Positions 1,339-51,933 of a stretch of DNA of 64,000 bases are shown here, piece by piece. The notes under the pieces were generated by a model. The model saw nothing but the letters and a program-made list of their open reading frames with translations, was not told the origin of the DNA and did no database searches. Source of the DNA: an uncultured Planctomycetales bacterium (GTDB taxonomy: Bacteria; Omnitrophota; Gorgyraeia; Zapsychrales; JBDRMG01); NCBI GenBank assembly GCA_964478715.1, contig CAYZIY010000002.1:113068-177067 (forward strand), in the 5' to 3' direction. A program made the translations under genes and the position numbers. How positions within the stretch are numbered: the stretch's first letter is position 1; each line of letters opens with the position of its first letter.

Positions 1339-1354
1339 AGGAATTAATATCCCA

Positions 1355-1670
1355 TGAACAATAATATCAAGACATACGAGCCAAACAATGGTTGCTGAAG
1401 CCGCTGTTTTGGGGACACTGCCTATTAGGTTTAATAATTATGTTGGTAAATTGAGTTATCTGGAAGAACTGGAACATAAATACCATCTTACCTTTCGAAT
1501 CAAAACATCCGAGCAGGAGAAATTATTGGAAAACAATTGATGCTTTACTTGCTATGCCAAATCTTAAAGAGGAATGGATGAAACGGCGCGATCGGATGCT
1601 TAATAACATGGTTGATGTAGTGGATTTTATGGTGGAATATATCGAAAATTTGAGAATAGATAGGAGATAG
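1355..1670 (+). pseudogene. Degraded C-terminal remnant of a second DUF354 paralogue, broken by frameshifts and stops.
   Basis: Two frames translate to EAAVLGTLPIRFNNYVGKLSYLEELEHKYHLTFRIKTSEQEKLLENN and DALLAMPNLKEEWMKRRDRMLNNMVDVVDFMVEYIENL. These align with the C-terminus of the upstream gene (ECACLGVPSIYVNSQKLGYIDQERKYGLVFDI...NEWKQKRDEFVKSKIDVTKYI). There is no intact ORF. Confidence 0.5.
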
Positions 1671-1671
1671 G

Positions 1672-2775: not shown

Positions 2776-2797
2776 TTTAAGGCAGCTTCTGTAAGAT

Positions 2798-4030
2798 ATG
2801 AAAATACTTCATTTCACCCATTCATTTTTTCCAGACTATGGCGGCACAGCAACGCGACTATATAATTTATTGTCACAATCCGAACATGAACACCATCTGT
2901 ATATTCCACTGAAAGAATCCGATTCAATAAATGAGAAGCCCATCAAAGATGACCGACATGAAATGCTTGGCAATATTCGTGTCAGCCGGAAACCGATCGC
3001 TAAAAAGAAGAAACTCAAAGTACCTTATCTGTCAACACAGATAGACATCATGAGGAGTGCATCTGAGCTCGCTAACAGTGTTCAAGGTGACGGTTTTAAT
3101 ATAGTTCATGCGCATAATCCTTTAATTTTTGCACTTGCAGGCATGAAATATGCAAAGCGTAAGAATCTGCCGCTTATTTATGAAATCCATACTTTACTCA
3201 AATACAAATCAAGCAAAGGGAAATATATTATTTGTAGAATGTTTTATTCTGCGATTGAGCAATTATTACGTTGGCAGGAAGGTAGGGTGTGCCACAGCGC
3301 AAGTCGCGTTATCGTTCAGACAGAAGATTTAAAAAAAGAGATAGCCCGTATCTATGATTTGCCAATGACTAAGATTGTTGTTATTCCCATGGGTTTCGAT
3401 AGTGATGTATTTAATCCAGATCAATGGAGTAAGCAAGGAGAAGTTCTTAAATTGAAGTATGCGTGGAAAAATAAAATAATATTTTTCTATAACGGTTTTC
3501 TGCATAGCGAAAATGGCATTGATTTCTTTTTGAAAACCGTATTGAGATTACGCGATTCTTACAAAAATAAAATTAAAATAATCATAACTGGCAGGGGACC
3601 TTTGCAAAAAGAGATTGAAAAGATGGCTCAAGAGACTGAGCATCTAATAGAGTTCATCGGTTTAGTCGACCATCAACAGATTGCATCTTATTACGCTGCA
3701 TGCGATATTGTGGTTATTCCATGGAAAGGTTTGGATAGAAAGCAGTTTAATATACCAACAAAATTATTAGAAGCTATGTCTATGAGTAAAATTATCTTGG
3801 CAAGTAGACTGAGAGGGATAATGACCATATTGAAAGAAAATGAAAACGGATTTTTGTTTGAACCTGATAATGAGAATGATTTGATTGAAAAAATTGAGAA
3901 GATTGTTTGCGAAGATGAAGATCTTAATGAGATGAGAGATCGAGCTAAGGAAGCAGTTATCCATGAATATCCTTGGAATCTTTTTAGGATGAAATTGGAG
4001 AAATTATATACAGAAATCTCCAGACATTGA
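2798..4030 (+). CDS. Glycosyltransferase family 4 (GT-B, retaining).
   Basis: N-terminal KILHFTHSFFPDYGGTA. C-terminal GT4 signature region EAMSMSKIILASRLRG...ENGFLFEP. Confidence 0.85.
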   Translation: MKILHFTHSFFPDYGGTATRLYNLLSQSEHEHHLYIPLKESDSINEKPIKDDRHEMLGNIRVSRKPIAKKKKLKVPYLSTQIDIMRSASELANSVQGDGFNIVHAHNPLIFALAGMKYAKRKNLPLIYEIHTLLKYKSSKGKYIICRMFYSAIEQLLRWQEGRVCHSASRVIVQTEDLKKEIARIYDLPMTKIVVIPMGFDSDVFNPDQWSKQGEVLKLKYAWKNKIIFFYNGFLHSENGIDFFLKTVLRLRDSYKNKIKIIITGRGPLQKEIEKMAQETEHLIEFIGLVDHQQIASYYAACDIVVIPWKGLDRKQFNIPTKLLEAMSMSKIILASRLRGIMTILKENENGFLFEPDNENDLIEKIEKIVCEDEDLNEMRDRAKEAVIHEYPWNLFRMKLEKLYTEISRH

Positions 4031-4677
4031 CAAGGAGTAGTAACGTGAAGTTAAATAAAGTTCCCACGCTTAGAATTCATTCAGTTAATCGAATCAGTTT
4101 AGATATGCAATTAATTAAGCATCTTAAGAAGCTCAAGCCGGGAGTAGTTTTGGACGTTGGTTCGAGTGCCTCACCCTATAAAAAATTTATTCCTGCAACA
4201 AAATATCTTCGACTTGACATCAACAAGGAAAGTCATCCAGATATCTGTTGCGATGTCCATCAGATAGAGTGGGCATCAAAGTTTTTTAATACAATTATTG
4301 CTTCCGAAGTTCTTGAGCATCTAGCGAATCCTGCTGTAGCTATCGAAGAAATGAGGAGAGTATTAAAATCTGGCGGAATATGCATTCTGACCACACGGTT
4401 CATGTATCCGTATCATCCTTGTCCAAAAGATTATTATCGATTTACAAAAGATTCACTGCAGATATTGTTTAGTAAATTTAGCACAATACAGATAGTGCCA
4501 CATGGTAATCGTATCCAATTGCTGTGGCAGATTATAAACAACAGTGGCAATAAGAGCTGCGGGAAACTCCAGCGAATATTCAACATCTTTCTGAATATAT
4601 TCAATCCCATATTTGCAAGAATCAACTTCATCGATAAGGGTTATCCACTCGGTTTTATTGTTGTTGCACAAAAATAG
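4027..4677 (+). CDS. Class I SAM-dependent methyltransferase.
   Basis: Motif I VLDVGSSASPY. Methyltransf_11/23-like acidic loop ASEVLEHL. Start overlaps the upstream stop (ATGA-type coupling). Confidence 0.8.
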   Translation: MTRSSNVKLNKVPTLRIHSVNRISLDMQLIKHLKKLKPGVVLDVGSSASPYKKFIPATKYLRLDINKESHPDICCDVHQIEWASKFFNTIIASEVLEHLANPAVAIEEMRRVLKSGGICILTTRFMYPYHPCPKDYYRFTKDSLQILFSKFSTIQIVPHGNRIQLLWQIINNSGNKSCGKLQRIFNIFLNIFNPIFARINFIDKGYPLGFIVVAQK

Positions 4678-4701
4678 TAACTAACCTTTATAGGTATTGT
4701 A

Positions 4702-5562
4702 ATGATCAAGCGAAGAAAAAAAGGTATTTCTGTTCTCGTTCCAACACAAAACTCACAGAAGACAGTGAAGCTATGCATAGAGTCATTTCTCGAATTTGGT
4801 GATGAGATTATTGTTGTTGATAATGGATCTAGGGATGAAACTATTAATATTGTTACCACGATTGCACAGCAATGTGAGAAGATTAAATTTTTTAATGCCC
4901 CAGACCTAGTTGATCTGTATCAGAATCGGCAATATGCTTTTGAGCGTTCCCAATATAACTGGATTGCACGAATCGATAGCGATTACGTCGCCTATACATC
5001 GGGACCGCAGGACATAAAGGAATTGAGACAACTGATAATCAATGCGAGACCATCTATTCGACCGATCGCCTATGGCATTAAGCAAGTGAATCTATATCGT
5101 GATTATTGGCACACGGGAATCGAAAGAGAGCAAAGACACAACAATAGTGGGCCGCATGTAGCATCACCGGTTGTGAGTCTGCCAGCAAGGATTATTCAAT
5201 ATTTTCCAGGAATGAAGTTTGCTAGACTTGGACGTTGGGAAGGTGTCAGATTTCAGAGATTTCTACAACATAGACATTTGGACGAGCCCTATTGGTTTCA
5301 TTGTGAATTCAAGAGTGACCTTGACTATTTCTATCGGTCAGAAAGAACAAATTGGAGACAGCTAGGCGATTATCGGCGCTTTCCGACGCTGCGCTCTTAT
5401 ATTGAACACATTCTCCCGGATAAATACGGAACGAATAATATCGACGAAGCTTGTCGTAACTATATTGAAAAACATTTGAATCGTTTTCTAATGACTTATG
5501 AACCGTTAAGGTATTATTCTTATCCTGAAATAATAAAAGAGGAAATGGAGAAATGTACGTAG
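4702..5562 (+). CDS. Glycosyltransferase family 2.
   Basis: ISVLVPTQNSQKTVKLCIESFLEFGDEIIVVDNGSRDET matches the GT2 DXD/nucleotide-binding N-terminal region. Confidence 0.85.
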   Translation: MIKRRKKGISVLVPTQNSQKTVKLCIESFLEFGDEIIVVDNGSRDETINIVTTIAQQCEKIKFFNAPDLVDLYQNRQYAFERSQYNWIARIDSDYVAYTSGPQDIKELRQLIINARPSIRPIAYGIKQVNLYRDYWHTGIEREQRHNNSGPHVASPVVSLPARIIQYFPGMKFARLGRWEGVRFQRFLQHRHLDEPYWFHCEFKSDLDYFYRSERTNWRQLGDYRRFPTLRSYIEHILPDKYGTNNIDEACRNYIEKHLNRFLMTYEPLRYYSYPEIIKEEMEKCT

Positions 5563-5596
5563 TTGACTAGGTATTTTATAACTGAAAGAGTAATTT

Positions 5597-6382
5597 ATGG
5601 ATAGTAAAGAAAAGGCGGATCTATCGAGAACGTTACAAGAAAAGTGTTATGCGTTTCCTTATCATTATCTTGTGGAGTTTAGTCAGGAAAACTTAGATAG
5701 CTTCTCTCAGGTTAAAAATAATCCCACAGGATACAGATATGCGGCCTATCTTAAAAGAGTTCTCGATGCTGTCAGCAAAGAAAAGTTTAAGAGTGTGGCA
5801 GATGTTGGGTGCGGCGATGGGTTCTTTATCAAAATATTTTCAAAACAATTTACGAATAAACGAATTGTCGGAATAGATCTTTCCGAAAATGCGCTGATGT
5901 TTGCGCGCTTACTTAACGCAAATAATGCAGCTGAGTTTTTCAATTATAATATCTTGGAAAAGAGGCCTGACGAGAAATTTGATATTGTGACTTTAATCGA
6001 AGTGCTCGAGCATATTCCACCTGATCAGATTGACTTGTTTCTTGGTGCGATTTGCAAAATGTTGCAGGATGATGGGAAGTTAATTGTGACGGTTCCTTCG
6101 GTCAATTTATCCATTGCAAATATTCAAAGACATTTTCAACATTTTAATGAAGAGAAGCTAAGGAAAGCGTTATCTCAGCATTTTGACTGTATTGAGATTG
6201 AATATATCAATAAGCAAAATTACATATCGAAAATAATACATAAAATCTTTACAAACTCGCTTTTCATATTAAACCATAAACGTTTAGCCAGTGCCCTTTT
6301 TAGATATTATCTTAATAGGTTTCTGCACGCCGACAAACATAATGGCCTAAGGCTTTTTGCCTTATGCAGAATAAATAGGTAA
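5597..6382 (+). CDS. Class I SAM-dependent methyltransferase.
   Basis: VADVGCGDGFFIKIF (motif I) and IEVLEHIPPD. Confidence 0.8.
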   Translation: MDSKEKADLSRTLQEKCYAFPYHYLVEFSQENLDSFSQVKNNPTGYRYAAYLKRVLDAVSKEKFKSVADVGCGDGFFIKIFSKQFTNKRIVGIDLSENALMFARLLNANNAAEFFNYNILEKRPDEKFDIVTLIEVLEHIPPDQIDLFLGAICKMLQDDGKLIVTVPSVNLSIANIQRHFQHFNEEKLRKALSQHFDCIEIEYINKQNYISKIIHKIFTNSLFILNHKRLASALFRYYLNRFLHADKHNGLRLFALCRINR

Positions 6383-6390
6383 ATAAACTA

Positions 6391-7863
6391 ATGCCGAATA
6401 ACGAAACAACATTATATCAAAAGTTTCACGAAACTATTAAACATGGGTTAATTTATGGGTTTGGCTCCATTATCCAAAGAATCGCAGGAGTTTTCTTAAT
6501 TCCTCTTTACACTGCCTGTTTTTCGACATCAGAGTATGGAGTTTTTGGACTATTGATGGCAACAAGTCAAATATTTGGAGTATTTATTTTGGCAGGGATG
6601 AGCACAGCATTCATGAGATCTTTCTATGATTATCAAGACAGGGCTGAAAAAAGGATGGTTGCATCCACTGCCATGTCTGTAATTTTTGTAAATAGTTTAG
6701 GAATTGGACTTCTGGGGTTATTATTTTCTAAACAAATTGCAATGTTCTTATTTCAAGATGCTCAGTATGGCATCTATATAGTTATGGTGGTGTTCATGGC
6801 GATTTTTTACCAGTTAAATTCTATACCGCTCGCAATTTTTCGCGTAAAAAAGAAATCCATTTTGTATATTTCATGCCAAATTACATTTTTCTTATTTCAA
6901 ATTGGAGCCGTGGTTTACTTTGTTGCGATAAGACAAATGGGTATTTTTGGAGCTATATATGGGTATGTTTTAGCGAGTCTGGCCTTGTTTGTCATTTTAA
7001 TAATTGTTACGCGGAAAGATATCACTTTTCGATTCTCTTTTTATGAAGCTCGAAAGATGTTACATTATGGAGTTCCTTTATTGTTGACAGGTTTAAGTGC
7101 TTTTCTTTTTAATTATATCGATCGGTATATGCTCGCCTTTTATGCCAGTTTTCATGAAGTTGGGCTTTACAACTTAGGTTATCAATTTGGCATGATTATG
7201 ATGGCTATTCTTGTAACACCTATGAAATTTATTTGGGGACCAATGTTTCTTTCTGTCAAGGACCACAGTAATGCCCATGCATTTTATGCGAGAATGCTTA
7301 CATACTTAACATGTGTTGGGTCATTGCTTTTTTTGATGTTGGCTGTTCTCTCAAAAGACGTTATACAGCTTTTTGCTAAACAGAGTTATTGGGATGCCTA
7401 TCATGTCGTTCCCGTTATTGCACTTTCTTACTTAATATGGAGTCAGCGAAGCGTGCTAGATGTAGCTATTCATTTAAAACGAAAAACAAAAATATCTGCA
7501 TTCTATTTTATTGCGGGAGCGATGATCAATATTGTTTTAAATTTAGCACTTATTCCAAGGTACCAAATGATGGGCGCAGCTTACGCTACATTAATTGCTT
7601 TTGTCGCGATGGTAATCGCTTCCTATGTTATTAATCAAAGATTAATTAAGATTGATTATGAGTGGAATAGAATTCTTAAGATATATTCGACTGCGATATT
7701 AATTTATTTTGTCACACCGTTAATTAACATAAGCAATGTATATCTTTCTCTTTTAACAAAGTCGGGATTCATTATTGTATGCTTTCCGTTGCTTCTTATG
7801 ATGCTTGGGTTTTATACATCGATAGAATTAGAAAAAATAAAAAAGATTTTAAGAATCACATAG
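6391..7863 (+). CDS. wzx: Polysaccharide/O-unit flippase, MOP superfamily (Wzx-like).
   Basis: 490 aa with about 12-14 hydrophobic helices. It sits inside the glycosyltransferase cluster. Confidence 0.75.
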   Translation: MPNNETTLYQKFHETIKHGLIYGFGSIIQRIAGVFLIPLYTACFSTSEYGVFGLLMATSQIFGVFILAGMSTAFMRSFYDYQDRAEKRMVASTAMSVIFVNSLGIGLLGLLFSKQIAMFLFQDAQYGIYIVMVVFMAIFYQLNSIPLAIFRVKKKSILYISCQITFFLFQIGAVVYFVAIRQMGIFGAIYGYVLASLALFVILIIVTRKDITFRFSFYEARKMLHYGVPLLLTGLSAFLFNYIDRYMLAFYASFHEVGLYNLGYQFGMIMMAILVTPMKFIWGPMFLSVKDHSNAHAFYARMLTYLTCVGSLLFLMLAVLSKDVIQLFAKQSYWDAYHVVPVIALSYLIWSQRSVLDVAIHLKRKTKISAFYFIAGAMINIVLNLALIPRYQMMGAAYATLIAFVAMVIASYVINQRLIKIDYEWNRILKIYSTAILIYFVTPLINISNVYLSLLTKSGFIIVCFPLLLMMLGFYTSIELEKIKKILRIT

Positions 7864-8003
7864 GATGTCTAAAAGTGATCTTCCCCCGAAAAAGTGGACA
7901 CTTAGAAGAGTTGGTGATAGCATGACAACCGGCTCAGAAGGAGGTGTCCGATGGGAGACAATGGCAAGAAAAAGTGTAATGCTCCCCATTAGTCAAGGGG
8001 AAT

Positions 8004-8786
8004 TTAAGTTAGAACCGGCTCTTTGATTTTAGGTTGATATTGTTCATAGCATTGTCTCGGCGTCATGTTATTCAGGCTTTGGTGCGGGAAGTCCGTATTG
8101 TAATCATAAATCCATTTGCCCAAAGCGACTTCGAATTCAAACGGGCTTTGCCAGTCATAGCACCAGACGATGCCTTCTTTGATGGTGCGCATGACCCGTT
8201 CGGTATCCGAATTGCCCTTAGGGTTAGACCAGGTCGTAAAGATCTGTTTGATGCCGAGAATCGAGCAGTTCATCATAAAGCGCTGACTCGTTGGCTGGCA
8301 CCCGTTATCAGAGATTAAGAATAATTGTTCTTTCATATTTTCGCGAATACCGTTGGGGAACCGGTTATTGACGGCCATCTGAATAGCGTCAAGCCAGTCT
8401 TCGGTTTTGGATTGCAAGCTAAGAGAATATCCGACGACTTCTTTGGTGTACCAGTCAAGGACGATGCACAGATACAGCCAGCCCCAGGGACCGATCTTGA
8501 TCTTTGTCATGTCTATGTCCCAGAAGTGATTGGGGTGCTGGGCCTGAGGTTTGGGACGGATGGGGCCGCGCCTGGCTTTAAGCCGTGTTTCTTTGGTCAC
8601 AAGCATATTCTGCTCTTTTAAAAGACGATAGATACGCTTCTTGTTGACAGCGATGCCTTGGCGGTACTTAAGATACGACCATATTCTCCGATAGCCCCAA
8701 AAGGGATGGTCGGTCTTAATCTCTTTGATTTGATTCAAAAGAACCCGATTACGTTCTATAACAGATTTTGATTTTGACCGTTTCAT
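8004..8786 (-). CDS. IS3-family transposase OrfB (DDE integrase core, rve).
   Basis: WDIDMTKIKIGPWGWLYLCIVLDWYTKEVVGY...SDNGCQPTS...WSNPKGNSDTERVMRTIKEG matches the DDE integrase core. It overlaps orfA by 4 nt in the -1 frame. Confidence 0.85.
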   Translation of the reverse strand: MKRSKSKSVIERNRVLLNQIKEIKTDHPFWGYRRIWSYLKYRQGIAVNKKRIYRLLKEQNMLVTKETRLKARRGPIRPKPQAQHPNHFWDIDMTKIKIGPWGWLYLCIVLDWYTKEVVGYSLSLQSKTEDWLDAIQMAVNNRFPNGIRENMKEQLFLISDNGCQPTSQRFMMNCSILGIKQIFTTWSNPKGNSDTERVMRTIKEGIVWCYDWQSPFEFEVALGKWIYDYNTDFPHQSLNNMTPRQCYEQYQPKIKEPVLT

Positions 8787-9058
8787 AGCTCGTATTCGCT
8801 TTTTTTTAACTCGATCGTGAGGTCACCGATGATGTTCTTGAGTTTGCGGACCTCTTGCTCTAAATGCTGTTCTTTCTTGGTCACGTTCTTGACTTCGAAG
8901 GCCTGATGGCCGTGCTTCAAGAGATTATCGCGCCATTTATAATATTGGGTCTGGGCGATCTGATACTTGGCGCAGAGTTTGCTGATCTCAATCTGGCCGG
9001 ATAAGCCTTCAAGAACGATTTGAAGTTTCTGCTGGCTTGACCATTTACGGTTTTTCAT
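8783..9058 (-). CDS. IS3-family transposase OrfA (HTH DNA-binding).
   Basis: MKNRKWSSQQKLQIVLEGL...KLCAKYQIAQTQYYKWRD is a typical IS3 OrfA HTH/leucine zipper. It ends at the A8 slippery run. Confidence 0.85.
   Translation of the reverse strand: MKNRKWSSQQKLQIVLEGLSGQIEISKLCAKYQIAQTQYYKWRDNLLKHGHQAFEVKNVTKKEQHLEQEVRKLKNIIGDLTIELKKSEYEL
8799..8810 (-). promoter_or_regulatory. Programmed -1 ribosomal frameshift site (A AAA AAA) joining orfA and orfB.
   Basis: The minus strand reads TTAAAAAAAAGC immediately before the orfA stop. Sliding -1 puts the ribosome into the orfB frame (…KKKRIRAMKRSK…). Confidence 0.6.
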
Positions 9059-9127
9059 CGAATAAGCCTCCTTTTTGGTTGGAGCCTTATTCTAACTTAA
9101 AAACCTCAATCTGTTAATGGGGAGCAG

Positions 9128-10046
9128 TATAAAAGAGACGGGGAACGGTTCCGATTCATAGACGAAAACGTTTCTGTCTTTCCGCTCGGGAAGATGTGCC
9201 GGATTTTGGAAGTATCAAGGAGCGGTTATTACGCGTGGTAGAAGCGACCGAAGAGTCAACGCAGGATCAATAACGAAACATTGCTCATTGAGATACAACG
9301 TGTGTTCATGGAGAACGACGCGAATTTTGGGAGCCCGAGGATCTGGAACGAGTTAAATAACGTCCAAGGCATCGGGTGTTCCAGGAACCGCGTGGCCCGA
9401 CTGATGCGTGAGGCGGGGCTGGCAGCGATCCATAAACGCAAGTTTAAAGTTACAACGAACTCGAAGCACAACTGGCCGGTGGCGCCCAATTTATTGGAAC
9501 GCAATTTCAACATTGATGAGCCCAATAAAATTTGGGTGACGGATATCAGTTATATCTGGACATGGGAAGGCTGGCTGTATTTGGCGTTTGTGTTAGACTT
9601 GTTCTCACGAGGCGTAGTTGGACTGACCATGTCGAACAGAATGACGGATGAATTAACGCAGAATGTGCTAAATCAGGCCATTGGCCGACGGAATCCTGAG
9701 TCTGGGCTGATTCATCATTCGGACCGTGGCAGCCAATACGCCAGCGGCGATTATCAGGCGCTGCTTAAAAAGCACAAAATCACACCGAGCATGAGCCGTA
9801 AAGGCGATTGCTGGGATAACGCTGTTGCTGAGAGTTTTTTACACACGTTAAAAGTTGAGAAAGTAAACCGTTATAGGTTTAAAACGAGGGATGAAGCAAA
9901 AAGAGAAATCTTTCGTTATATCGAGATGTATTACAACCGGAAAAGAACGCATTCATCCCTCGGGTATCTTAGCCCGTTTGAGTACGAAAAGCGTTCGGTT
10001 CCATCTTTATTAACCGTCCACTGATCTGGGGAAGGTCAACAGTAAA
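9128..10046 (+). mobile_element. 5'-truncated second IS3-family element (orfB only). Its orfA/left end was replaced by the nested IS at 7980-9127.
   Basis: The region 9140-9280 encodes the typical OrfB N-terminal segment (…KMCRILEVSRSGYYAW*KRPKSQRR…) with an in-frame TAG at 9239-9241. No orfA or left inverted repeat is present. The right boundary is uncertain. Confidence 0.55.
9281..10024 (+). CDS. IS3-family transposase OrfB (integrase core) of the truncated copy. Probably non-functional.
   Basis: IWVTDISYIWTWEGWLYLAFVLDLFSRGVVG...HSDRGSQYAS...CWDNAVAESF matches the DDE integrase. Upstream in-frame stop. No cognate orfA. Confidence 0.75.
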   Translation: MLIEIQRVFMENDANFGSPRIWNELNNVQGIGCSRNRVARLMREAGLAAIHKRKFKVTTNSKHNWPVAPNLLERNFNIDEPNKIWVTDISYIWTWEGWLYLAFVLDLFSRGVVGLTMSNRMTDELTQNVLNQAIGRRNPESGLIHHSDRGSQYASGDYQALLKKHKITPSMSRKGDCWDNAVAESFLHTLKVEKVNRYRFKTRDEAKREIFRYIEMYYNRKRTHSSLGYLSPFEYEKRSVPSLLTVH

Positions 10047-11261
10047 ATGAATCTTGAAAGCACTCAAGTTCTTTATATTGCATATGGGGGGATCATGCAA
10101 AATGTTTTTGATTCTCAAGTATTACAGTATGTGAAGTGCCTGAGGGAACGCAATGTCGGAATTACATTAATTGTTTTTGATCAATTTAATAAGATTTTCT
10201 TAAAAGAATATTTCCAAAAGAGAAAGAAGATCAAGGAAGATCTCGGCGAGCATGTTTATTGTATGTTTAGATTACCTCTCATGGGACGTTTCAGCGTTCA
10301 GATTGATGCGTTTAGACTACATTTATATTTTAAGAAACATTTTCAATCTAAATACAAGAAGATTATATTTCATTGTCGTAATTTATGGGCATCTTATCTT
10401 GCTTTGAAAAGTATAAAAAACAAGGAGAATATATTTCACGTTTTAGCGGATATCAGAGGAGATCAAATAGCAGAATATCGATGCTATTACCCAGATTCGC
10501 TACTCACCAGATGGAAAATAAAAGAACTTCAATTAGTGGGGCATTACACTTGCAAGCACGTAACAAAATTGTTTTGTGTTTCCTCAGTTTTGGCAGAAAC
10601 TTTGGAGAAAAAATATTGTATCAATACGGATGATATTATTGTGGTGCCGACATGCGTCGATCATAGAATATATTCATCTAACTATGATTCAAGAAAGGCT
10701 CTGAGAAAGAAACTTGGCATTGCCGATAAGTTTGTTATTGTTTACAACGGAGGGCTGCAGGGGTGGCAAAACTTCGAAGGCCTCATCCAGATAGCGACAA
10801 AAATCAGTCAGATAGATAGCACCACATTTTTCTTTGTTTTAACAAAAGATGTTTCTACAGCAAAAACATATCTTGAAAAACATTCTTTTCCAAAAGAACA
10901 GTATAAGGTTATGAATTTGCAATATGGTAAAATGGCGAAATTTCTATCGTGCGGCGATCTCGGGCTGCTTGTTAGAAAGCAGAATGATGTGAATAAAGTT
11001 GCAAGCCCAACAAAATTTGCCGAATATCTCGCATGCGGAATGCCAGTATTGGTGAGTCCGAATATCGGTGATACGGAATCAATCATCAAGAATGAAAATG
11101 TTGGTTTCGTTTTAGGAAATGATTTGCAGTTAGCAGCCTTACTGAAGAGGATAAAAGATGATCGTGAAGCCCTTGCAGCTGATTGCATGAAGGTCGCAAT
11201 GAAATATTATGACTTAGAGACCTATCTTGATCAAATTCAGAATATTTATGATTCAATATAG
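10047..11261 (+). CDS. Glycosyltransferase family 4.
   Basis: N-terminal VLYIAYGG. C-terminal KFAEYLACGMPVLVSPNIGDTESIIKNENVGFVL (EX7E-like GT4 motif). Confidence 0.8.
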   Translation: MNLESTQVLYIAYGGIMQNVFDSQVLQYVKCLRERNVGITLIVFDQFNKIFLKEYFQKRKKIKEDLGEHVYCMFRLPLMGRFSVQIDAFRLHLYFKKHFQSKYKKIIFHCRNLWASYLALKSIKNKENIFHVLADIRGDQIAEYRCYYPDSLLTRWKIKELQLVGHYTCKHVTKLFCVSSVLAETLEKKYCINTDDIIVVPTCVDHRIYSSNYDSRKALRKKLGIADKFVIVYNGGLQGWQNFEGLIQIATKISQIDSTTFFFVLTKDVSTAKTYLEKHSFPKEQYKVMNLQYGKMAKFLSCGDLGLLVRKQNDVNKVASPTKFAEYLACGMPVLVSPNIGDTESIIKNENVGFVLGNDLQLAALLKRIKDDREALAADCMKVAMKYYDLETYLDQIQNIYDSI

Positions 11262-11310
11262 TGTAAATGAAATCGATATCTCATTTTTAAATTAAATTCT
11301 AAAAAATGGC

Positions 11311-12411
11311 ATGCCCATGAAAGGAATCGAATCACAGAAATATAGAAAAGTTAGATTAGGAGTATGCCTACGACTTCACAACAAGCAGGCGGCTGAGCAT
11401 CTTAAGCCACTTCTTGACCATCCTTCTGTTACCAAGCTTCACATTGTCCGCCATGAGCCGATCAAGGGCCTGGCGTCATCAAAGGTTCAATATTACATTA
11501 TTAATAATAAAATGAAATGTCGTCGATTTTTTCTCATGTACCAAAAATGCAAGGAATTAGTCAGGAATAATCAAGTTGACGCATTTGTTTCCTTTAACCC
11601 AATTCCGTATGGATGTATTTCAGCCCTAGCTTCAAGATCAAAGAATATCCCTTTTCATTTTGGATTCATTGGTAGCGATTGGTACGGAAATTCGCAGTCA
11701 TTATTCTGGAGAATATTCAAATCGCTACTTAAAAAAGCTAGCTTTATAACAGTGACCGGAAAAAGTATGCTTAACCAAACAATCAGCATGGGTTTAAATC
11801 CAGAAAATATCGCTGTTTTACCGCATTCTATTGATCTTGAGCGATTTCAGATTTGTGATCAAGGAGTTAAGAAATATAATTTTATTTTCGTTGGTCAACT
11901 AATTAAACGTAAGCGTGTCGATCTCATCCTGCAAGCTTTGAGCATGATTAGAAAAGAATATCAGAATACAAAATTGTGCATTGTTGGGGATGGTCCATTA
12001 CGAAAGGCTTTAGAACAACAAGTGCGGCGGCTTGCGTTAACCGATGCAGTCGACTTTATTGGGCAAACGGATTCCGTACAAAACTATCTTAATCAGGCTA
12101 AGATTTTAGTCATGGCATCTGATATGGAAGGATTTCCATTTGCTATAGTTGAAGCGCTTTGTTCTGGGCTCGTACCAGTAAGCACAAGAACAGGAACCAT
12201 CGATGATGTGCTGATTGATGGCAAGAGTGGATTTATCGTTGAGTGCAGGGATGTCAATGGTTTGGCGAATAGTATGGTTCGTTTGCTTAAGGATCACAAT
12301 TTATATCAACAAATGCAGGAGGACATTTTCAAGCTGAGAAAAGACTATACTTATGAGAAGGCAACAGACATTTGGGATCAGTGGTTAAGTAAGCTAGAAA
12401 AAACAAGCTAG
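11311..12411 (+). CDS. Glycosyltransferase family 4.
   Basis: GFPFAIVEALCSGLVPVSTRTGTIDDVLIDGKSGFIV is a canonical GT4 C-terminal motif. Confidence 0.85.
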   Translation: MPMKGIESQKYRKVRLGVCLRLHNKQAAEHLKPLLDHPSVTKLHIVRHEPIKGLASSKVQYYIINNKMKCRRFFLMYQKCKELVRNNQVDAFVSFNPIPYGCISALASRSKNIPFHFGFIGSDWYGNSQSLFWRIFKSLLKKASFITVTGKSMLNQTISMGLNPENIAVLPHSIDLERFQICDQGVKKYNFIFVGQLIKRKRVDLILQALSMIRKEYQNTKLCIVGDGPLRKALEQQVRRLALTDAVDFIGQTDSVQNYLNQAKILVMASDMEGFPFAIVEALCSGLVPVSTRTGTIDDVLIDGKSGFIVECRDVNGLANSMVRLLKDHNLYQQMQEDIFKLRKDYTYEKATDIWDQWLSKLEKTS

Positions 12412-24972: not shown

Positions 24973-25923
24973 ATGGAAACACTCTTTAAGCTGGACAATA
25001 ACAGAGAGCTGCAGCAGCTTTTCGGCAAATATGATGCGAATCTCAAGCTGATCGAGCAGGAGTTAAAGGTCAGAATTTCGCATCATAAAAGTGGTTTGCA
25101 AATCCACGGATCGGAAAAGCAAACCCAAAACACCACCGAACTCTTGGAATATCTTCTTGATATCGTTGATAGCGGACGTGATGTCAAAAGACGTGACATC
25201 ATCGATGCTTTGAGGTTGTCTGATCCCACAACCGGAATCGACTTCAAGAAACTTTCCAAAGGAAAGATCGATGTTGTTGCTAAAGGGGCTTTGATTACTC
25301 CCAAAACCAAAGGGCAGATGGAGTATATCGAGGCCATTAAGCATTTTGACATTGTCTTTGGCTTGGGTCCGGCGGGAACGGGAAAAACGTATATCGCTAT
25401 GGCCATGGCCGTTAATGCGCTGAAAAAAGGATTGGTTCGCCGGATTATTCTGACCCGACCGGCGATCGAGGCCGGAGAGAATTTAGGGTTTCTTCCCGGT
25501 GATATGGTCGAGAAAGTCTTGCCGTATCTTCGTCCGGTTTATGATGCTCTATACGACATGTTAGATGCCGAAAAAGTGGAGCTTTACAAAGAAAAGGGAA
25601 TCATTGAAGTGGCCCCCCTGGCTTACATGCGGGGCCGTACTCTCAATGATGCTTTTGTGATTCTGGATGAGGCTCAAAATTGCACCTCCGAGCAGATGAA
25701 AATGTTTCTCACTCGTTTGGGATTTGATTCCAAGACCGTGATCACAGGTGATATGACTCAAAGCGATTTACCAGAAGGGAAACCGATCGGCTTAATTCAA
25801 GCCCAGGAAATTCTTAAGAATATTGACGGCATCAAATTTATATTATTGACAGGGGATGATGTTGTCCGGCATGAACTCGTCCAAAGAATCATTGAGGCTT
25901 ATGAACGCTTCACCAAAAAATAG
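24973..25923 (+). CDS. phoH: PhoH-family ATPase (YbeZ-like).
   Basis: Walker A GLGPAGTGKTY and the conserved PhoH C-terminal region. Confidence 0.9.
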   Translation: METLFKLDNNRELQQLFGKYDANLKLIEQELKVRISHHKSGLQIHGSEKQTQNTTELLEYLLDIVDSGRDVKRRDIIDALRLSDPTTGIDFKKLSKGKIDVVAKGALITPKTKGQMEYIEAIKHFDIVFGLGPAGTGKTYIAMAMAVNALKKGLVRRIILTRPAIEAGENLGFLPGDMVEKVLPYLRPVYDALYDMLDAEKVELYKEKGIIEVAPLAYMRGRTLNDAFVILDEAQNCTSEQMKMFLTRLGFDSKTVITGDMTQSDLPEGKPIGLIQAQEILKNIDGIKFILLTGDDVVRHELVQRIIEAYERFTKK

Positions 25924-27352
25924 TTCCCAGATTATTCGCATCGGAAGCATTATTCTGCTAGAGCTTGTACTTCTGCTTTATTGTTATTATGTAGAATTTA
26001 GTCTGATTATTCCGGTTTTGCTTTTCTTTATGGCCATGGTGCTGGTGTTGTTAAGAAAAGCGGAGCGGCGATTATTTTTGAATTTAAGTCTTCTTCTGGT
26101 TCTGATTTCGTTTTGTTCTTTTCTTTCTCTTAACGTAGACTATTTTCAAATCAGTTATATTCCCGTGGCCAGCATTGCGATGTTGACGATGCTTCTTTAC
26201 AACGATCTGCTTCTGGCCTTTGTGATGACGTTAACTTCAGGGCTTTTGGTCGGTTTGATTGCCGGTATCGACGTTAGCTTGATGAGTGTTTTTATTCTGG
26301 GAGGGCTGACCGGTGTCTATGCGGTCAAAGATGCCAGGACCAGAGGAGAGCTGATCAAGGCCGGTACGCTGATTGGTCTGATTCAGGCATTATGTATTAT
26401 TCTTCTGGCTTCGTCGATGGAAATGATTTGGGAGACGGCTTTCTGGAAATTTCAGGTCTGGCCTTTTATTCTCAATGGTTTTATTTCTGCCGGCATTGTT
26501 TTGTTGGGCTCAAAGATTTTTGAATGGTTTTTTGGTGAGGTAACCAATTTCAGCCTGCTTGAGCTTTCCGATTTTAATCAGCCGCTCTTAAAAAGAATGG
26601 TTTTGGAATGCCCCGGAACATATCACCACAGCCTGATTGTCAGCAATATGTCGGAAGCGGCCGCTACATCGATAGGAGCCAATGCCCTATTGACCAGGGT
26701 TGGAGCCTATTATCACGATATCGGCAAACTGGTGAAGCCAGAATATTTTAACGAGAACCAGATGATCGCGGGCAATAAGCATGAGCAATTAGAACCGACG
26801 ATGAGCCGTCTTGTGATTTTAAATCACGTCAAAGAAGGGATTGAGCTGGCCAAAAAAAATAAATTAAGTCAAAAAATTTTAGATTTTATACCTCAACACC
26901 ATGGGACAAGCTTGATTTATTATTTTTATCAACGGGCCGTAGAAGAGGCGAAACATGACGAGAAAGTTGACGAATTGAATTTCCGCTATCCGGGGCCGCG
27001 GCCTCAGAGCCGCGAGGCGGCGATTGTGATGCTGGCCGATTCTGTTGAAGGAGCGGTACGCGCCTTAAGTGAGCCGACCGCCAGCCGCATCGAAGAGGTG
27101 GTGCGCAAAATCATCAATAACAAATTTATTGACGGACAACTGGATGAATGTAATCTGACGCTGAAAGACATTAACATTATCGGCTCCGTTTTCACGAGAA
27201 GCTTAAGTGCGATCTATCACAGTCGCATTCAATATCCCGATAAGAAAAATGGAAAAACAAATAAGAGTAAAAAATCTTCAGAAAAAGTTTCCTCTAAAAA
27301 TCAGTCTGATAAAGACGACGATTCACAGAATTCTAAAGAGTCTGAAGATTGA
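25856..27352 (+). CDS. 7TM-receptor-HD membrane hydrolase (YqfF/PgpH-like HD-domain protein).
   Basis: N-terminal multi-TM region. HD domain HHSLIVSNMSEAAA...YYHDIGK. Lys-rich acidic C-tail. The first Met overlaps phoH, so the true start is probably later. Confidence 0.8.
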   Translation: MMLSGMNSSKESLRLMNASPKNSSQIIRIGSIILLELVLLLYCYYVEFSLIIPVLLFFMAMVLVLLRKAERRLFLNLSLLLVLISFCSFLSLNVDYFQISYIPVASIAMLTMLLYNDLLLAFVMTLTSGLLVGLIAGIDVSLMSVFILGGLTGVYAVKDARTRGELIKAGTLIGLIQALCIILLASSMEMIWETAFWKFQVWPFILNGFISAGIVLLGSKIFEWFFGEVTNFSLLELSDFNQPLLKRMVLECPGTYHHSLIVSNMSEAAATSIGANALLTRVGAYYHDIGKLVKPEYFNENQMIAGNKHEQLEPTMSRLVILNHVKEGIELAKKNKLSQKILDFIPQHHGTSLIYYFYQRAVEEAKHDEKVDELNFRYPGPRPQSREAAIVMLADSVEGAVRALSEPTASRIEEVVRKIINNKFIDGQLDECNLTLKDINIIGSVFTRSLSAIYHSRIQYPDKKNGKTNKSKKSSEKVSSKNQSDKDDDSQNSKESED

Positions 27353-27686
27353 GAATACCGAACTCTCCGTTGTTTTTACTACGGATGTCCATATCCGATC
27401 CCTTAACCGGCAATATCTGAAAAAAAATCACGCCACTGATGTTCTTGCCTTTGATATGAGCCCCTCTGCCAGAAGCACAAAAAAGAAATTATGTGGTGAG
27501 ATTATTATTTCTATTGAAACAGCCCGTCGCAATGCTAAGCATTACCAGTTTAAGATCATTGATGAGATTCGCCTATATCTGATTCATGGAATTTTGCACC
27601 TTTTGGGTTACGATGACCATTCTTTTCGAGACAAAAGAGAGATGGAGTGGAAACAGCAGAAACTACTTCAAGAAATTAAGACATGA
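27207..27686 (+). CDS. ybeY: rRNA maturation endoribonuclease YbeY.
   Basis: H..H.LGYDH motif (HGILHLLGYDDH). The likely true start is Met15 at about 27249, but that still overlaps the upstream gene. Confidence 0.85.
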   Translation: MRSITVAFNIPIRKMEKQIRVKNLQKKFPLKISLIKTTIHRILKSLKIENTELSVVFTTDVHIRSLNRQYLKKNHATDVLAFDMSPSARSTKKKLCGEIIISIETARRNAKHYQFKIIDEIRLYLIHGILHLLGYDDHSFRDKREMEWKQQKLLQEIKT

Positions 27687-28417
27687 TCCGAAAAACCACC
27701 GGTATTATTTTAAAGACGTATGATTTAAGGGAGACCAGCAAGATCGTGGTTTTTTTTACGAGAGATTACGGCAAGCTTAAAGGGGTCTTGAAGGGAATCC
27801 GTAAGGATCCAAAAAAATTCGGAAGCAGTCTGGAGAAATTTTCGGTTAATGATATTGTTTATTATTGGCATGCGGATACCGAACTTCAGCTGGTCGGCCA
27901 ATGCGATTTGATCTCTTATTATTTTCCGATACGCAAAGACCTTAAGCGGCTGATGGCCGCACAGTATATGCTGGAGCTGGTAGATGTCATTATGCCGACG
28001 GAAGAGCCAAATCCTCAAGTGTACCGACTAATGATTTATTTTCTAGAGAGCCTGGAAACGATTCACGATATTAACAAACTTATTCATGTTTTTCAGATCA
28101 AAATTCTGCATTATTCCGGTTTTCGTCCTCACATCGAAGATTGTTTATCCTGTCAAAAGACTATTCAAGGCCGGGCTAAAATGAGTCTGAAGCTTGGCGG
28201 CCTGATTTGTCTGCAATGTCTGGAGAGAGATTTGAGCGCTATTTCGATATCCAAAGGTGCGATTGCTTCCATGTTGCATGTTGAAAAAAGCCCCTGGCCA
28301 AAGACATTGCAGCTGGGCCTTTCGCGATCGATTCAGAAAGAGCTCAAGATGATCCTGAATAATTTTCTCGTTTATCATCTTGAGAAACGGATCAAATCAG
28401 AACAATATCTTCAGTAG
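27683..28417 (+). CDS. recO: DNA repair protein RecO.
   Basis: N-terminal OB fold and a C-terminal zinc finger (CLSCQK...CLQC). 244 aa. Confidence 0.85.
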   Translation: MIRKTTGIILKTYDLRETSKIVVFFTRDYGKLKGVLKGIRKDPKKFGSSLEKFSVNDIVYYWHADTELQLVGQCDLISYYFPIRKDLKRLMAAQYMLELVDVIMPTEEPNPQVYRLMIYFLESLETIHDINKLIHVFQIKILHYSGFRPHIEDCLSCQKTIQGRAKMSLKLGGLICLQCLERDLSAISISKGAIASMLHVEKSPWPKTLQLGLSRSIQKELKMILNNFLVYHLEKRIKSEQYLQ

Positions 28418-28423
28418 AAATTT

Positions 28424-30610
28424 CTAGGAATATCTTTTTTTATTGACTTGCGAGAGGATACTTTCGGCCAGAGTTTTTCCGATTTGCGGAATAGAGGCTA
28501 AATCATCAAGGCTGACTGTTCTTAGATTCTGGAGTGTTTTTACTCCCTTATTATGCAGTTGACGCGCGCGATGGCGTCCAATATTTTTTAGAGAAATGAG
28601 CTCCAGAAGATCTTCTAGGATACCGTATTTCATGCGTGTCGAGAGTTCTTCCAGAATAAAAGTCAATTGACGGTGATGGTCTAACTCGGCAATGACCCCG
28701 CAGGCATGTAGGAGCCAGCGGGCGCTTTCCGTGTGACGGTAGACGTCCCCCGGGCCGATTCCGAATTCTTCGCAGATCAAATCTTCTTTTTTCTCATTAA
28801 TCCATTCCAGGTATAAAGATGTTGTTTTTAAAGTAGAGAGATAATGATAGAAATCTTCAAGTGCCGGTAAATCATGGGCCGTCACAATGAATTCATCCGC
28901 ATAGGTTGAAGCGAAGTATTCTAGCCGTCCATAGTCGCTTTTGCCTAAATGGAGAAGATCGGTATCCGGTGTACAGCAAAGTAGATGGAGAATTCCTACC
29001 GGTGAGAACGATTGCTTCTGTTGCATCTTTTTGAGTCCGTCTCGCAGGATGAGGCCCGTGATTGGATCGATATAAAGCCGGCTGATGCATTGGCCAAAGG
29101 CAGTTGCAAAATAACGGAATCCGCTTTTTTCAATAAATTCTTTTTGGGTAAGAAAATCAAAGATGTGACTGATTGTTTCGATCATGTGGATAGTTTGTTT
29201 TTGATGCGAGAGAAACGTGTGGCTGATAAATTCAAACATCCCCTGAACATCATGGACATAACCGCCGGCAATCGAAGAGAGGATGTGCATTCTAAGAGCC
29301 GATTCACTGCCGAGTTTGGAAATGACAGGTTCCGGTTCTGCTTCGATATAGCGTTCAAAAAGGATAGGGACCTCATTGGGAGATTTGGCGACGATTACCG
29401 CTTCACCGAACTGATCATATTTCGGTCGGCCTGCCCGACCCGCGCATTGCTTATATTCGAAAGTGGGAATATAAGTTGAGCCCAAGCCAGCTTCATAGCG
29501 TTTGCAATCTCTGATAATGGCCCGCCGGGCTGGAAGATTAACACCGGCGGCCAGCGTAGGAGTAGAGCAAATAACCTTGATGATATTTTTTTTGAAGTTT
29601 TCCTCAATGAGCTTGCGCTGACGGGGTTTGAGGCCGGCATGATGAAACGCCGACCCGTTGACGGCAGTGTCGGCAAGCTTCTGACAGATTTTTGTTGCCT
29701 CACCCCTTAAGCCGAGAAGTTGTTTGGAGATGGCTGTTAGTTTTTTCTTTTCATCCGGTGAAAGGGTTTGAGCGACTGCTTTGCCCACAATTCGGGATGC
29801 CGCCTGGGCACTGCGGCGGGAATTGACAAAGACAAGGACTTGACCTTTTGAACGCAAGGTATCGATTACCAGCTTACTGAGATCATCATGAGGCTCTTCT
29901 TTGATGAGACGTGTGGCGTCTTTATAAAAATTAATCTTTTCATTAAAATAAACGCCTTCTTTGAGGGGAACAGGTCGCCAACGGCTGATCACTGCCTTGG
30001 CCTTCAGCCATTTTGCGATTTCATCGGCATTGCTGACTGTTGCGCTTAAAGCCACGATTTGGATATGATGATTGATTTGCTTAATCCGAGCGGTCAGGAT
30101 TTCAAGCGTCGGGCCTCGGGAGACGTCATTTAAAAAATGAATTTCATCGAGAACAAGAACATTAAGAGCGCTAATGAGCCATTTAGCGCGAGAACGAAGC
30201 AGTGAATCCACTTTCTCGGCGGTTGCAATTAAGATTTGGTAACGGTTCAGCATTTTGCTGGGACTATCCAGATCGCCAGTTGCAATACCCACCTTAATGC
30301 CAAGAGCGGAATATTTCTCTTTGAAATCTTCAAATTTCTCGCTGGCCAGGGCTTTTAAAGGAGCAATGTAAAGACAACGGCCATTGTTTTCCAGAATGGA
30401 TTTGAGCATGCATAACTCAGCCATAAGGGTTTTGCCGGCAGCCGTGGGAACAGCCATTAGGATGCTTTGATTTTCTAAAAGACCTTTTTTAATAGCTTGC
30501 TCTTGGGGTGGATAAAAACTTTCACATCCTGAACGAGCCAGTATGTCCGCGACCTGTTTAGGGAATCGGTATTTTTGAAGGGTCTGGATTACTTTCATAA
30601 AGGAAAACAT
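28424..30610 (-). CDS. Hel308/Ski2-like superfamily-2 DNA helicase (DEIH box, winged-helix, ratchet and HhH domains).
   Basis: AVPTAAGKT (motif I), VLDEIHFL (motif II), ATPTLAAGVNLPARR, QCAGRAGRP, and a C-terminal HhH (LISLKNIGRHRARQL). Collinear with archaeal Hel308. Confidence 0.85.
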   Translation of the reverse strand: MFSFMKVIQTLQKYRFPKQVADILARSGCESFYPPQEQAIKKGLLENQSILMAVPTAAGKTLMAELCMLKSILENNGRCLYIAPLKALASEKFEDFKEKYSALGIKVGIATGDLDSPSKMLNRYQILIATAEKVDSLLRSRAKWLISALNVLVLDEIHFLNDVSRGPTLEILTARIKQINHHIQIVALSATVSNADEIAKWLKAKAVISRWRPVPLKEGVYFNEKINFYKDATRLIKEEPHDDLSKLVIDTLRSKGQVLVFVNSRRSAQAASRIVGKAVAQTLSPDEKKKLTAISKQLLGLRGEATKICQKLADTAVNGSAFHHAGLKPRQRKLIEENFKKNIIKVICSTPTLAAGVNLPARRAIIRDCKRYEAGLGSTYIPTFEYKQCAGRAGRPKYDQFGEAVIVAKSPNEVPILFERYIEAEPEPVISKLGSESALRMHILSSIAGGYVHDVQGMFEFISHTFLSHQKQTIHMIETISHIFDFLTQKEFIEKSGFRYFATAFGQCISRLYIDPITGLILRDGLKKMQQKQSFSPVGILHLLCCTPDTDLLHLGKSDYGRLEYFASTYADEFIVTAHDLPALEDFYHYLSTLKTTSLYLEWINEKKEDLICEEFGIGPGDVYRHTESARWLLHACGVIAELDHHRQLTFILEELSTRMKYGILEDLLELISLKNIGRHRARQLHNKGVKTLQNLRTVSLDDLASIPQIGKTLAESILSQVNKKRYS

Positions 30611-30648
30611 TTTAACACAAAAATAATTATGTTAGAATACAATTCATT

Positions 30649-31107
30649 ATGAAGATTATTATCCAAAGAGTGAAAGAAGCTTGTGTGAGTATTAACGGCA
30701 AAGAGATGGCCCGTATCTCAAAAGGTATGGTTCTTTTTGTCGGTGTAGGCAAAGAGGATAGTCTAGGCGATGTCGGTTATTGTGTAAAAAAATGTGTCGA
30801 GTTGCGTATGTTTGAGGACAATCAAGGTAAAATGAATTTTTCTTGTCAGGATGTCGAAGGTCAGGCTTTGGTAGTGTCTCAATTTACGCTTATGGGAAAT
30901 TGCAATAAAGGAAGACGGCCGAGCTTTGATGCGGCTGCTCGGCCACAGATGGCTCGCCATCTTTATGAATTATTTATTGAGAAAGTGAAGGAAACAGGAA
31001 TTGTGGTTAAAACAGGTCAGTTTCAAGCTATGATGGATGTTGAGCTTATTAATGATGGTCCGGTGACATTCATTATTGAGAGCCAACAGAGTATAGTTGA
31101 TATTTGA
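30649..31107 (+). CDS. dtd: D-aminoacyl-tRNA deacylase.
   Basis: MKIIIQRV...SQFTL...NDGPVTF, 152 aa. Confidence 0.9.
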   Translation: MKIIIQRVKEACVSINGKEMARISKGMVLFVGVGKEDSLGDVGYCVKKCVELRMFEDNQGKMNFSCQDVEGQALVVSQFTLMGNCNKGRRPSFDAAARPQMARHLYELFIEKVKETGIVVKTGQFQAMMDVELINDGPVTFIIESQQSIVDI

Positions 31108-51657: not shown

Positions 51658-51933
51658 CTAGCGCATGCGGGCTCGATCAAGACGCTGCATTTGTTGTTGA
51701 TGACGCAACCGTTCCATTTCCATGCGATGATCCTGCATTTTTCTTTCATGTTCACGACGAGAATCTTCGATAAACTGTTGAGATTGAGAATAAATCTTCG
51801 AGGCTTTTGGCGTGTTCTCTCTATCGGGATCTTCGCGAAAAGATTTTCCGAGATGCGTGATAAAACCAAAGAAGGCTCCGATAAATATCAGAATCAATAA
51901 AACAGCGATAAAAGGGATAATAATTTTACTCAT
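51658..51933 (-). CDS. Small membrane-anchored hypothetical protein (91 aa) with a charged Q/R-rich C-terminus.
   Basis: N-terminal TM IIIPFIAVLLILIFIGAFFGFI. It is the only convincing ORF in this gap. Confidence 0.4.
   Translation of the reverse strand: MSKIIIPFIAVLLILIFIGAFFGFITHLGKSFREDPDRENTPKASKIYSQSQQFIEDSRREHERKMQDHRMEMERLRHQQQMQRLDRARMR

Follow-up and report, generated by a model that had tools for sequence, protein, structure and literature searches.

A Hel308-type helicase at a conserved recO/dtd locus in Omnitrophota, probably of ancient archaeal origin

The hel308 locus and its product

The window analysed here is a stretch of 64,000 nucleotides from contig CAYZIY010000002.1, submitted as an uncultured Planctomycetales bacterium and placed among the Omnitrophota in GTDB. 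On its minus strand, at 28424..30610, it carries an open reading frame (ORF) of 728 amino acids, called hel308 here. Judged from its sequence, the product is an orthodox five-domain Hel308, that is, a Hjm-type, Ski2-like helicase of superfamily 2 (SF2), and the coding sequence is supported by Pfam, NCBIfam, end-to-end structure alignment and comparison with relatives. The gene lies antiparallel between recO (27683..28417, plus strand) and dtd, encoding D-aminoacyl-tRNA deacylase (30649..31107, plus strand). It converges with recO, a pairing kept in relatives, and diverges from dtd, its most stable neighbour throughout the clade. The convergent junction (28418..28423) leaves 6 bp between the two stop codons and is a variable insertion point in relatives; the terminator scan found no terminator-like structure in it. 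The divergent spacer between hel308 and dtd (30611..30648) is AT-rich, 38 bp long (50 bp from M5) and has weak -10-like hexamers on both strands. The scans for sigma-70 promoters and terminators gave weak consensus matches only and were not used as evidence.

The reading frame, its strand, its length and its position between recO and dtd agree exactly with a preliminary description of this DNA, and the strings AAGKT, DEIH and LISLKNIGRHRARQL quoted there were all found in the translation. The true start is probably M5 at coordinate 30598, giving a product of 724 amino acids, because the identical database protein (P0001) has 724 amino acids and Met5 is near-invariant among the 25 Omnitrophota sequences aligned. 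An exact look-up with the 728-residue form gave no match because databases place the start at M5, and the 724-residue form matched P0001.

All five domains are encoded in the expected order on the minus strand. RecA-like domain 1 (Pfam DEAD, residues 34-197, E = 3.8e-32; 30020..30511), placed by Pfam and structure alignment, carries motifs I (PTAAGKT), Ia (PLKALASEK), Ib (TAEK), II (DEIH) and III (SAT). RecA-like domain 2, with a core recognised by Pfam and alignment (Helicase_C, residues 310-396, E = 1.5e-11; 29423..29683), has motif IVa (FHHAGL), motif V (TPTLAAGVNLPA), the hairpin region and motif VI (QCAGRAGRP). Motif IV is also present, and every SF2 motif aligns with Hel308 of A. fulgidus and P. 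furiosus. The winged-helix domain 3 (Pfam HTH_61, residues 420-494; 29129..29353) scored 29 bits against a cut-off of 24.3 and is collinear with domain 3 of the structures 2zj2 and 2p6r. The ratchet domain 4 (Pfam Helicase_dom4_arc, PF21280, residues 539-663, E = 9.4e-31; 28622..28996) contains R625 and W632, which align with the ratchet helix of A. fulgidus, and R625, E628 and W632 are invariant in 25 relatives. The roles of the ratchet-helix arginine and tryptophan are said to have been worked out by Buttner and colleagues in 2007. The helix-hairpin-helix (HhH) domain 5 (Pfam HHH_5, residues 669-722, E = 7.2e-10; 28445..28606) carries the RxRAR motif as GRHRAR (R679, R681 and R683), aligned with GRVRAR in A. 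fulgidus and GRRRAR in P. furiosus. Across the 25 Omnitrophota sequences the SF2 motifs, R625 and W632, and the arginines of RxRAR are invariant.

The matches to solved structures run over the full length of the protein: P. furiosus Hjm (2zj2, residues 13-722 aligned with 5-699, E = 1.8e-151), A. fulgidus Hel308 (2p6r, E = 8e-143) and S. solfataricus Hel308 (2va8, E = 1.5e-135). Among the NCBIfam models, those for archaeal Hel308 equivalogs take the first four places by a wide margin, with 824.5 (NF002654), 613, 572 and 476 bits. An AlphaFold2 model built from a shallow alignment of 25 sequences had a mean predicted local distance difference test score of 67.5, was confident for the RecA domains only and fell below 50 in domains 3-4; it served a coarse Foldseek check and no structural claims. 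The nine best matches of this model in the PDB are all Hel308/Hjm, with template-modelling scores of 0.55-0.6, which are modest because the model is poor in domains 3-4. Every Hel308 family feature that can be looked for in a sequence was found, apart from a score above the curated NCBIfam cut-off.

Compared with archaeal Hel308/Hjm, the protein has the same five-domain order, a near-equal length and 36-37% identity to the solved structures, and it keeps the SF2 motifs, the ratchet arginine and tryptophan, and RxRAR. The same residue is found in archaea in 181 of 253 columns conserved in Omnitrophota. It differs by six lineage-fixed substitutions, among them Cys for Met in motif VI, while indels at the scale of domains are lacking relative to the archaeal majority. 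The nearest archaeal representatives carry intein-sized insertions that the Omnitrophota copies do not have. Three proteins of 1192, 876 and 776 amino acids (P0122, P0123 and P0124), the nearest representatives outside Omnitrophota with 49-50% identity, match in two stretches and are much longer, which suggests intein-like insertions. Metazoan HELQ and the helicase domain of POLQ belong to the Hel308 family as well, and POLQ structures were matched at E values of about 1e-52 by sequence and 1e-31 by fold. However, the identity is 22-26%, the sequence alignment is limited to residues 12-469, and the eukaryote-specific extensions and the polymerase fusion are absent from the Omnitrophota protein.

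The preliminary description also favoured a Hel308-type protein over Lhr or RecQ, and in this the Pfam domains, the NCBIfam scores and the matches to solved structures agree. The Lhr core helicase is often regarded as the bacterial counterpart of Hel308. Lhr is likewise a 3'→5' SF2 helicase with a layout of RecA1, RecA2, winged helix and domain 4, and is associated with DNA repair (PMC8301817), but the Omnitrophota protein has the archaeal domain 4 and HhH instead of DEAD_assoc, of which there was no match. The Lhr models reached 44.7 bits (NF007284, cut-off 1496) and 117 bits (TIGR04121, cut-off 850), in the RecA core only. For RecQ, TIGR00614 gave 39 bits (cut-off 219.8) confined to residues 304-395, with no match to RQC or HRDC. 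Models of RecG and Cas3 also matched the RecA core only, with less than 120 bits. ASH-Ski2 proteins (described in PMC10946056) have an N-terminal zinc finger with four cysteines and lack HhH domain 5; the N-terminal 35 residues of the Omnitrophota protein hold a single cysteine, and domain 5 is present.

The genes that flank hel308 are bacterial housekeeping genes, DnaE, RecO, YbeY and GroEL among them. Their order is GroES/EL, IMPDH, GuaA, DnaE, HU, HisRS, AspRS, a LysM protein, PhoH, a PgpH-like 7TM-HD protein, YbeY and RecO, followed by Hel308 on the opposite strand and then by Dtd, TatD and DUF3352. In the ORF map of the whole window, coding is almost exclusively on the plus strand and the cumulative GC skew rises monotonically. 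Besides hel308, the credible genes on the minus strand are limited to those of an IS3-type transposase at 8004-9058 and perhaps an ORF of 91 amino acids at 51658-51933; the remaining minus-strand ORFs are shadows of groES, HU and phoH. The earlier statement that no other gene within about 35 kb lies on the minus strand thus holds and is conservative. The 91-residue ORF has a hydrophobic, membrane-type N-terminal helix and a charged tail rich in Arg, Gln and Glu and, if real, it would be the sole further minus-strand gene downstream of the insertion sequence (IS) elements.

Other parts of the window were noted in passing. Positions 1-12411 hold a polysaccharide-biosynthesis cluster of low GC content (0.34-0.39) with genes for DUF354, UDP-GlcNAc 2-epimerase, GT4 and GT2 glycosyltransferases, methyltransferases and a flippase. 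This cluster, probably a variable island for surface glycans that IS elements have entered recently, is broken up by IS3-type transposase genes at 8004-9058 (minus strand) and 9281-10024 (plus strand), whose GC content at third codon positions (GC3) of 0.57 is far above that of the surroundings. The longest ORFs of PhoH and PgpH overlap by 68 nt (25856-25923) and those of PgpH and YbeY by 146 nt (27207-27352). These overlaps resemble the gene calls of relatives and are either genuine overlapping genes or consistently over-extended starts.

Distribution and synteny in Omnitrophota

More than 120 homologue clusters were found at 60-70% identity, and every source-named cluster among the best 120 is from Omnitrophota, the names being Candidatus Omnitrophota, Omnitrophica and Ca. 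Aceula lacicola. Seymour et al. 2023 place Ca. Aceula in 'Velamenicoccia; Zapsychrales', corresponding to the GTDB class Koll11 and order UBA10015. The lineage that bears Hel308 includes class Koll11/'Velamenicoccia'. The labels of metagenome-assembled genomes (MAGs) are coarse and sometimes wrong. Seven MAGs from binchicken assemblies titled 'uncultured Planctomycetales bacterium' (L007, L008, L010, L016, L018, L024 and L033) carry an Omnitrophota-type Hel308; those sequences that are long enough fall inside the Omnitrophota clade, and where the flank is sufficient, most have the gene order typical of Omnitrophota. The label 'Planctomycetales' under which they were submitted appears to be wrong or very coarse.

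The block recurs on contigs with homologues at 61-67% identity, where Hel308 again lies on the opposite strand between RecO and Dtd. One of these contigs, L004, keeps the Dtd side and has toxin-antitoxin cargo on the RecO side. The arrangement Dtd, Hel308, RecO is the rule in at least 24 Omnitrophota loci from GTDB species genomes, including the deepest branches at 53-56% identity, and the order and orientation were found in loci at 53-71% identity. None of the archaeal Hel308 loci among the matches listed shares any neighbour with the window.

A scan of metagenomes was anchored on RecO in order to avoid ascertainment through Hel308 itself, and gave 54 informative loci among the matches listed. 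Hel308 lies downstream and antiparallel in 39 of these. The gap between RecO and Hel308 is at most 100 bp in 18 of the 39 loci and 100-1000 bp in 8, and in the other 13 the two genes are separated by 1.3-4.9 kb of heterogeneous cargo. Empty sites, where RecO is followed directly by Dtd, were seen in five loci (L125, L127, L142, L145 and L150). L142 and L150 belong to the 15 loci scored without Hel308, which are weighed below, and in L125, L127 and L145 the flank is otherwise too short to score. L149 was bracketed with these five. On a tree of RecO, each of the major branches includes loci that bear Hel308, and the empty sites fall into two small nested clades. The most economical interpretation is that the gene was present ancestrally and was later lost or relocated at least twice. 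The preliminary description had set against horizontal acquisition a vertically inherited bacterial clade with the same synteny in all relatives. A monophyletic bacterial clade with the same order and orientation down to 53% identity was indeed found, but the five relatives with an empty site show that the synteny is not universal.

The Dtd side of hel308 is the more stable of its two junctions. The RecO side is an insertion hot spot in relatives, with 1.3-4.9 kb of unrelated cargo between RecO and Hel308 in L089, L090, L099, L105, L107, L118, L121, L124, L132, L134, L154, L162 and L164, and with cargo at 8349-11942 of L004. Inspection of the translated ORFs suggests that methyltransferases, PEP-CTERM proteins, a GGDEF/HD-GYP protein, DUF262-like and ORF6N/Rha-like proteins, an IS256-like transposase and YefM/YoeB-like pairs are among the cargo, and in L004 Pfam recognises HepT/MNT toxin-antitoxin pairs as well as a Fic protein. 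Some relatives, L004 (389-2125) and L006 (215-1954), encode a PolX-type polymerase (HHH_8, DNA_pol_B_thumb and PHP) a few kb beyond DUF3352, which is not found at the corresponding position in the window.

Origin and inheritance

A neighbour-joining tree of 82 full-length proteins unites the Omnitrophota copies in a single clade (100 of 100 bootstraps) and connects it with archaeal Hel308s. In an exhaustive search of 1.84 billion representatives of clusters at 50% identity, this clade is reduced to one full-length representative and fragments, beyond which the identity falls to 50% or less. The 3511 representatives with E < 1e-30 are headed by Hel308-like proteins, of which the nearest named ones are archaeal Hel308. 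All of the nearest named outgroups among the matches listed are archaeal (Hadarchaeota, Methanoperedens, Baldrarchaeota and Thorarchaeota), the closest sequences outside the clade being those of Hadarchaeota at 49-51%. The mean identity is 60.5% within Omnitrophota, 49.2% between Omnitrophota and Hadarchaeota, 47.5% between Hadarchaeota and other archaea and 41.9% between Omnitrophota and other archaea. Since Omnitrophota are at least as similar to Hadarchaeota as Hadarchaeota are to other archaea, the clade appears to lie inside archaeal diversity; this nesting is drawn from identities, the neighbour-joining tree having no outgroup. As nearly all Archaea have Hel308 and inherit it vertically (PMC10946056), a single ancient transfer from archaea to Omnitrophota is parsimonious.

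The pairwise divergence of Hel308 correlates with that of RecO (Mantel r 0.82), PhoH (0.74), TatD (0.74), PgpH (0.71), AspRS (0.66) and Dtd (0.59), with p = 0.0005 throughout, and the control values between housekeeping genes are 0.54-0.74 (p = 0.0005). The GC content of hel308 is 0.453 (z = 0.9 against the window), its GC3 is 0.447 (z = 0.2), and its codon-bias distance ranks 27 among 53 window genes. GC content and codon usage are thus unremarkable, and the deviation from neighbouring genes that was to be looked for as a check on horizontal gene transfer (HGT) is not there. What stands of the earlier idea of horizontal acquisition is the archaeal ultimate origin, whereas a recent or sporadic import does not agree with the synteny, the monophyly and the co-divergence. 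It is quite probable, in the judgement of the analysis, that this is an orthodox Hel308 that was acquired in an ancient and probably single event from archaea and then inherited vertically at the recO/dtd slot.

An import that is recent or sporadic, specific to this genome or its close kin and marked as a fresh insertion by the opposite strand, is very unlikely. It would account for an archaeal-type gene that is the sole minus-strand gene in more than 40 kb and that borders, at its recO side, on what is an insertion hot spot in relatives, but position and orientation are the same in relatives down to 53% identity. Moreover, the monophyletic Omnitrophota clade has an identity gap from archaea of at least 50%, Hel308 co-diverges with its neighbours, GC content, GC3 and codon usage are typical, and no mobile-element genes flank it in the window. 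The opposite-strand placement had been read as consistent with HGT, but relatives keep the same antiparallel slot, and the case illustrates that a single gene running against an otherwise co-directional block does not by itself point to recent HGT. An artefact of assembly or binning, in which an archaeal fragment was fused chimerically to a bacterial contig, has a virtually negligible probability. Some MAG labels are unreliable, as in the case of a 'Ca. Acidoferrum' contig (L066) inside Bathyarchaeia, but just 6 bp of continuous sequence separate the stop codons of recO and hel308, the same junctions are seen in dozens of assemblies made independently in different projects, some of them on contigs of 300-900 kb, and the archaeal loci among the matches listed share no neighbours with the window.

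Two other explanations concern the function. A defence helicase, either like Hachiman HamB or another Ski2-like defence ATPase, in place of a repair enzyme is extremely unlikely. HamB has the same Ski2-like RecA core, its PADLOC models reach up to 166 bits and its structure 8vx9 is matched at 1.8e-23, but these matches are confined to the RecA core (about residues 31-217), whereas Hel308 is matched with 824 bits from end to end. Neither HamA nor a nuclease is present as a partner, the neighbours RecO and Dtd gave no PADLOC match, a single-copy gene in stable synteny with housekeeping genes does not look like part of a defence island, and no relative was found in viral contigs. It is also rather improbable that the protein has been repurposed for quality control of RNA or ribosomes together with YbeY, PhoH, Dtd and the aminoacyl-tRNA synthetases. 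Genes related to RNA and translation do surround the locus throughout the clade, and the Ski2-like relatives Ski2, Mtr4, Brr2 and ASH-Ski2 are RNA helicases (PMC10946056). On the other hand, Hel308 of P. abyssi unwinds DNA with 3' overhangs and not RNA duplexes (PMC10946056), the Omnitrophota proteins depart from the archaeal majority at just six lineage-fixed residues, without changes at the scale of domains, and they keep HhH domain 5, which binds DNA, together with its RxRAR motif. In addition, hel308 is not co-operonic with the RNA-related neighbours because it is transcribed in the opposite direction.

Several observations weigh against an orthodox Hel308 of ancient archaeal origin and vertical inheritance. 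The curated NCBIfam cut-offs are missed (824.5 against 887 bits for NF002654 and 571.7 against 1200 for NF040935), which is probably why public records label these proteins 'DEAD/DEAH box helicase' only. Fifteen of the 54 RecO-anchored loci have no Hel308 within the available flank, which was the part examined, and the figures on prevalence derive from samples, namely GTDB species genomes and RecO-anchored metagenome loci among the matches listed. The sister group of the Omnitrophota clade has a bootstrap value of 29-40% in a neighbour-joining tree built from p-distance-derived distances with no outgroup. As the tree is unrooted and the sister group weakly supported, the donor and the direction of transfer rest on the parsimony of the distribution, and both the identity of the donor and how deep in the phylum the transfer lies are uncertain. 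The cellular role may also differ from that in archaea, because the partners known from the literature, RPA and Hjc, are archaeal proteins (PMC7776575).

Among the sequences sampled, Hadarchaeota-like ones are closest. Contact with archaea or predation on them is a plausible ecological route of the transfer. Ca. Velamenicoccus archaeovorus is described as a predatory epibiont of the archaeon Methanothrix (PMC13153191), and the class name 'Velamenicoccia' suggests that it may be in the same class as the relatives described here. A scan of viral contigs with the family alignment found no relative, and so there is no evidence for a viral vector. Two further sequences carry bacterial names. A Hel308 at 47% identity is encoded at 6001-8154 of L034 (JAQUPF010000001.1, 397 kb, 'MAG: bacterium isolate STD1_218'). 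This contig is apparently GC-rich, judging by its dense overlapping ORFs, the protein groups weakly with a Haloferacaceae sequence, and the flanking ORFs (ankyrin+OB and a methyltransferase) are uninformative on the domain of the host, which could be either another bacterium with Hel308 or an archaeon under a wrong label. The Hel308 of the 11-kb contig L066 (DASQZS010000041.1, 'Candidatus Acidoferrum sp.') nests inside Bathyarchaeia, and this contig probably comes from an archaeon and was mis-binned into a MAG of Acidobacteriota.

Proposed role and significance

Under an ancient archaeal origin, an ancestor of a large Omnitrophota lineage would have acquired hel308 from an archaeon, probably once, and the gene would have landed head-on between recO and dtd in a co-directional housekeeping block. 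Vertical descent under purifying selection would have followed, with occasional loss or relocation. By homology, the protein would load on 3' single-stranded DNA and translocate 3'→5', with the ATP-driven RecA domains working against the ratchet helix of domain 4. The hairpin between motifs V and VI would split the duplex, and domain 5 would bind DNA and act as a brake. Forks and D-loops are the preferred substrates of archaeal Hel308, for which a role in the restart of stalled forks and in recombination has been proposed (PMC7776575). The likely substrates of the Omnitrophota protein would be forks, D-loops and lagging-strand duplexes in the restart of stalled replication and in recombinational repair. 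With six lineage-fixed differences and no indels at the scale of domains, it should work like the archaeal enzyme.

This biochemical activity and the repair role are predicted by homology, and any cooperation with RecO or bacterial single-stranded DNA-binding protein (SSB) would be hypothetical. The preliminary description had suggested a possible part in replication-fork repair alongside RecO. The adjacency to RecO is conserved, yet the genes converge and unrelated cargo often lies between them. The setting differs from that of archaeal Hel308 in that the host is a bacterium with a replication and repair apparatus of the DnaE/RecO type and in that the gene occupies a fixed bacterial slot adjoining recO and dtd. 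A bolder and rather unlikely possibility is that in this lineage Hel308 has become a core enzyme of bacterial genome maintenance that would work with SSB and RecFOR, maybe displacing a canonical bacterial helicase for forks or recombination such as RecQ or RecG, and that would have been gained through intimate, at times predatory, contact with archaea.

The unexpected part of the finding is the host distribution, which is a bacterial lineage. Reviews state that Hel308 is absent from bacteria, no mention of Hel308 together with Omnitroph* was found in the literature searched, and neither Seymour et al. 2023 nor a 2026 preprint on complete Omnitrophota genomes mentions helicases or Hel308. With a whole bacterial lineage in which Hel308 is vertically inherited at a fixed locus, the stated phyletic distribution of the family needs correction. 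The locus would also represent a dated and stable transfer of an information-processing enzyme from archaea to bacteria, in a phylum with known archaeal associations. If the protein is indeed a core enzyme of genome maintenance in these bacteria, it would be an anciently stabilised transplant across domains that contradicts the textbook absence of Hel308 from bacteria. The Omnitrophota provide a natural system for asking how Hel308 works away from its archaeal partners RPA, PCNA and Hjc.

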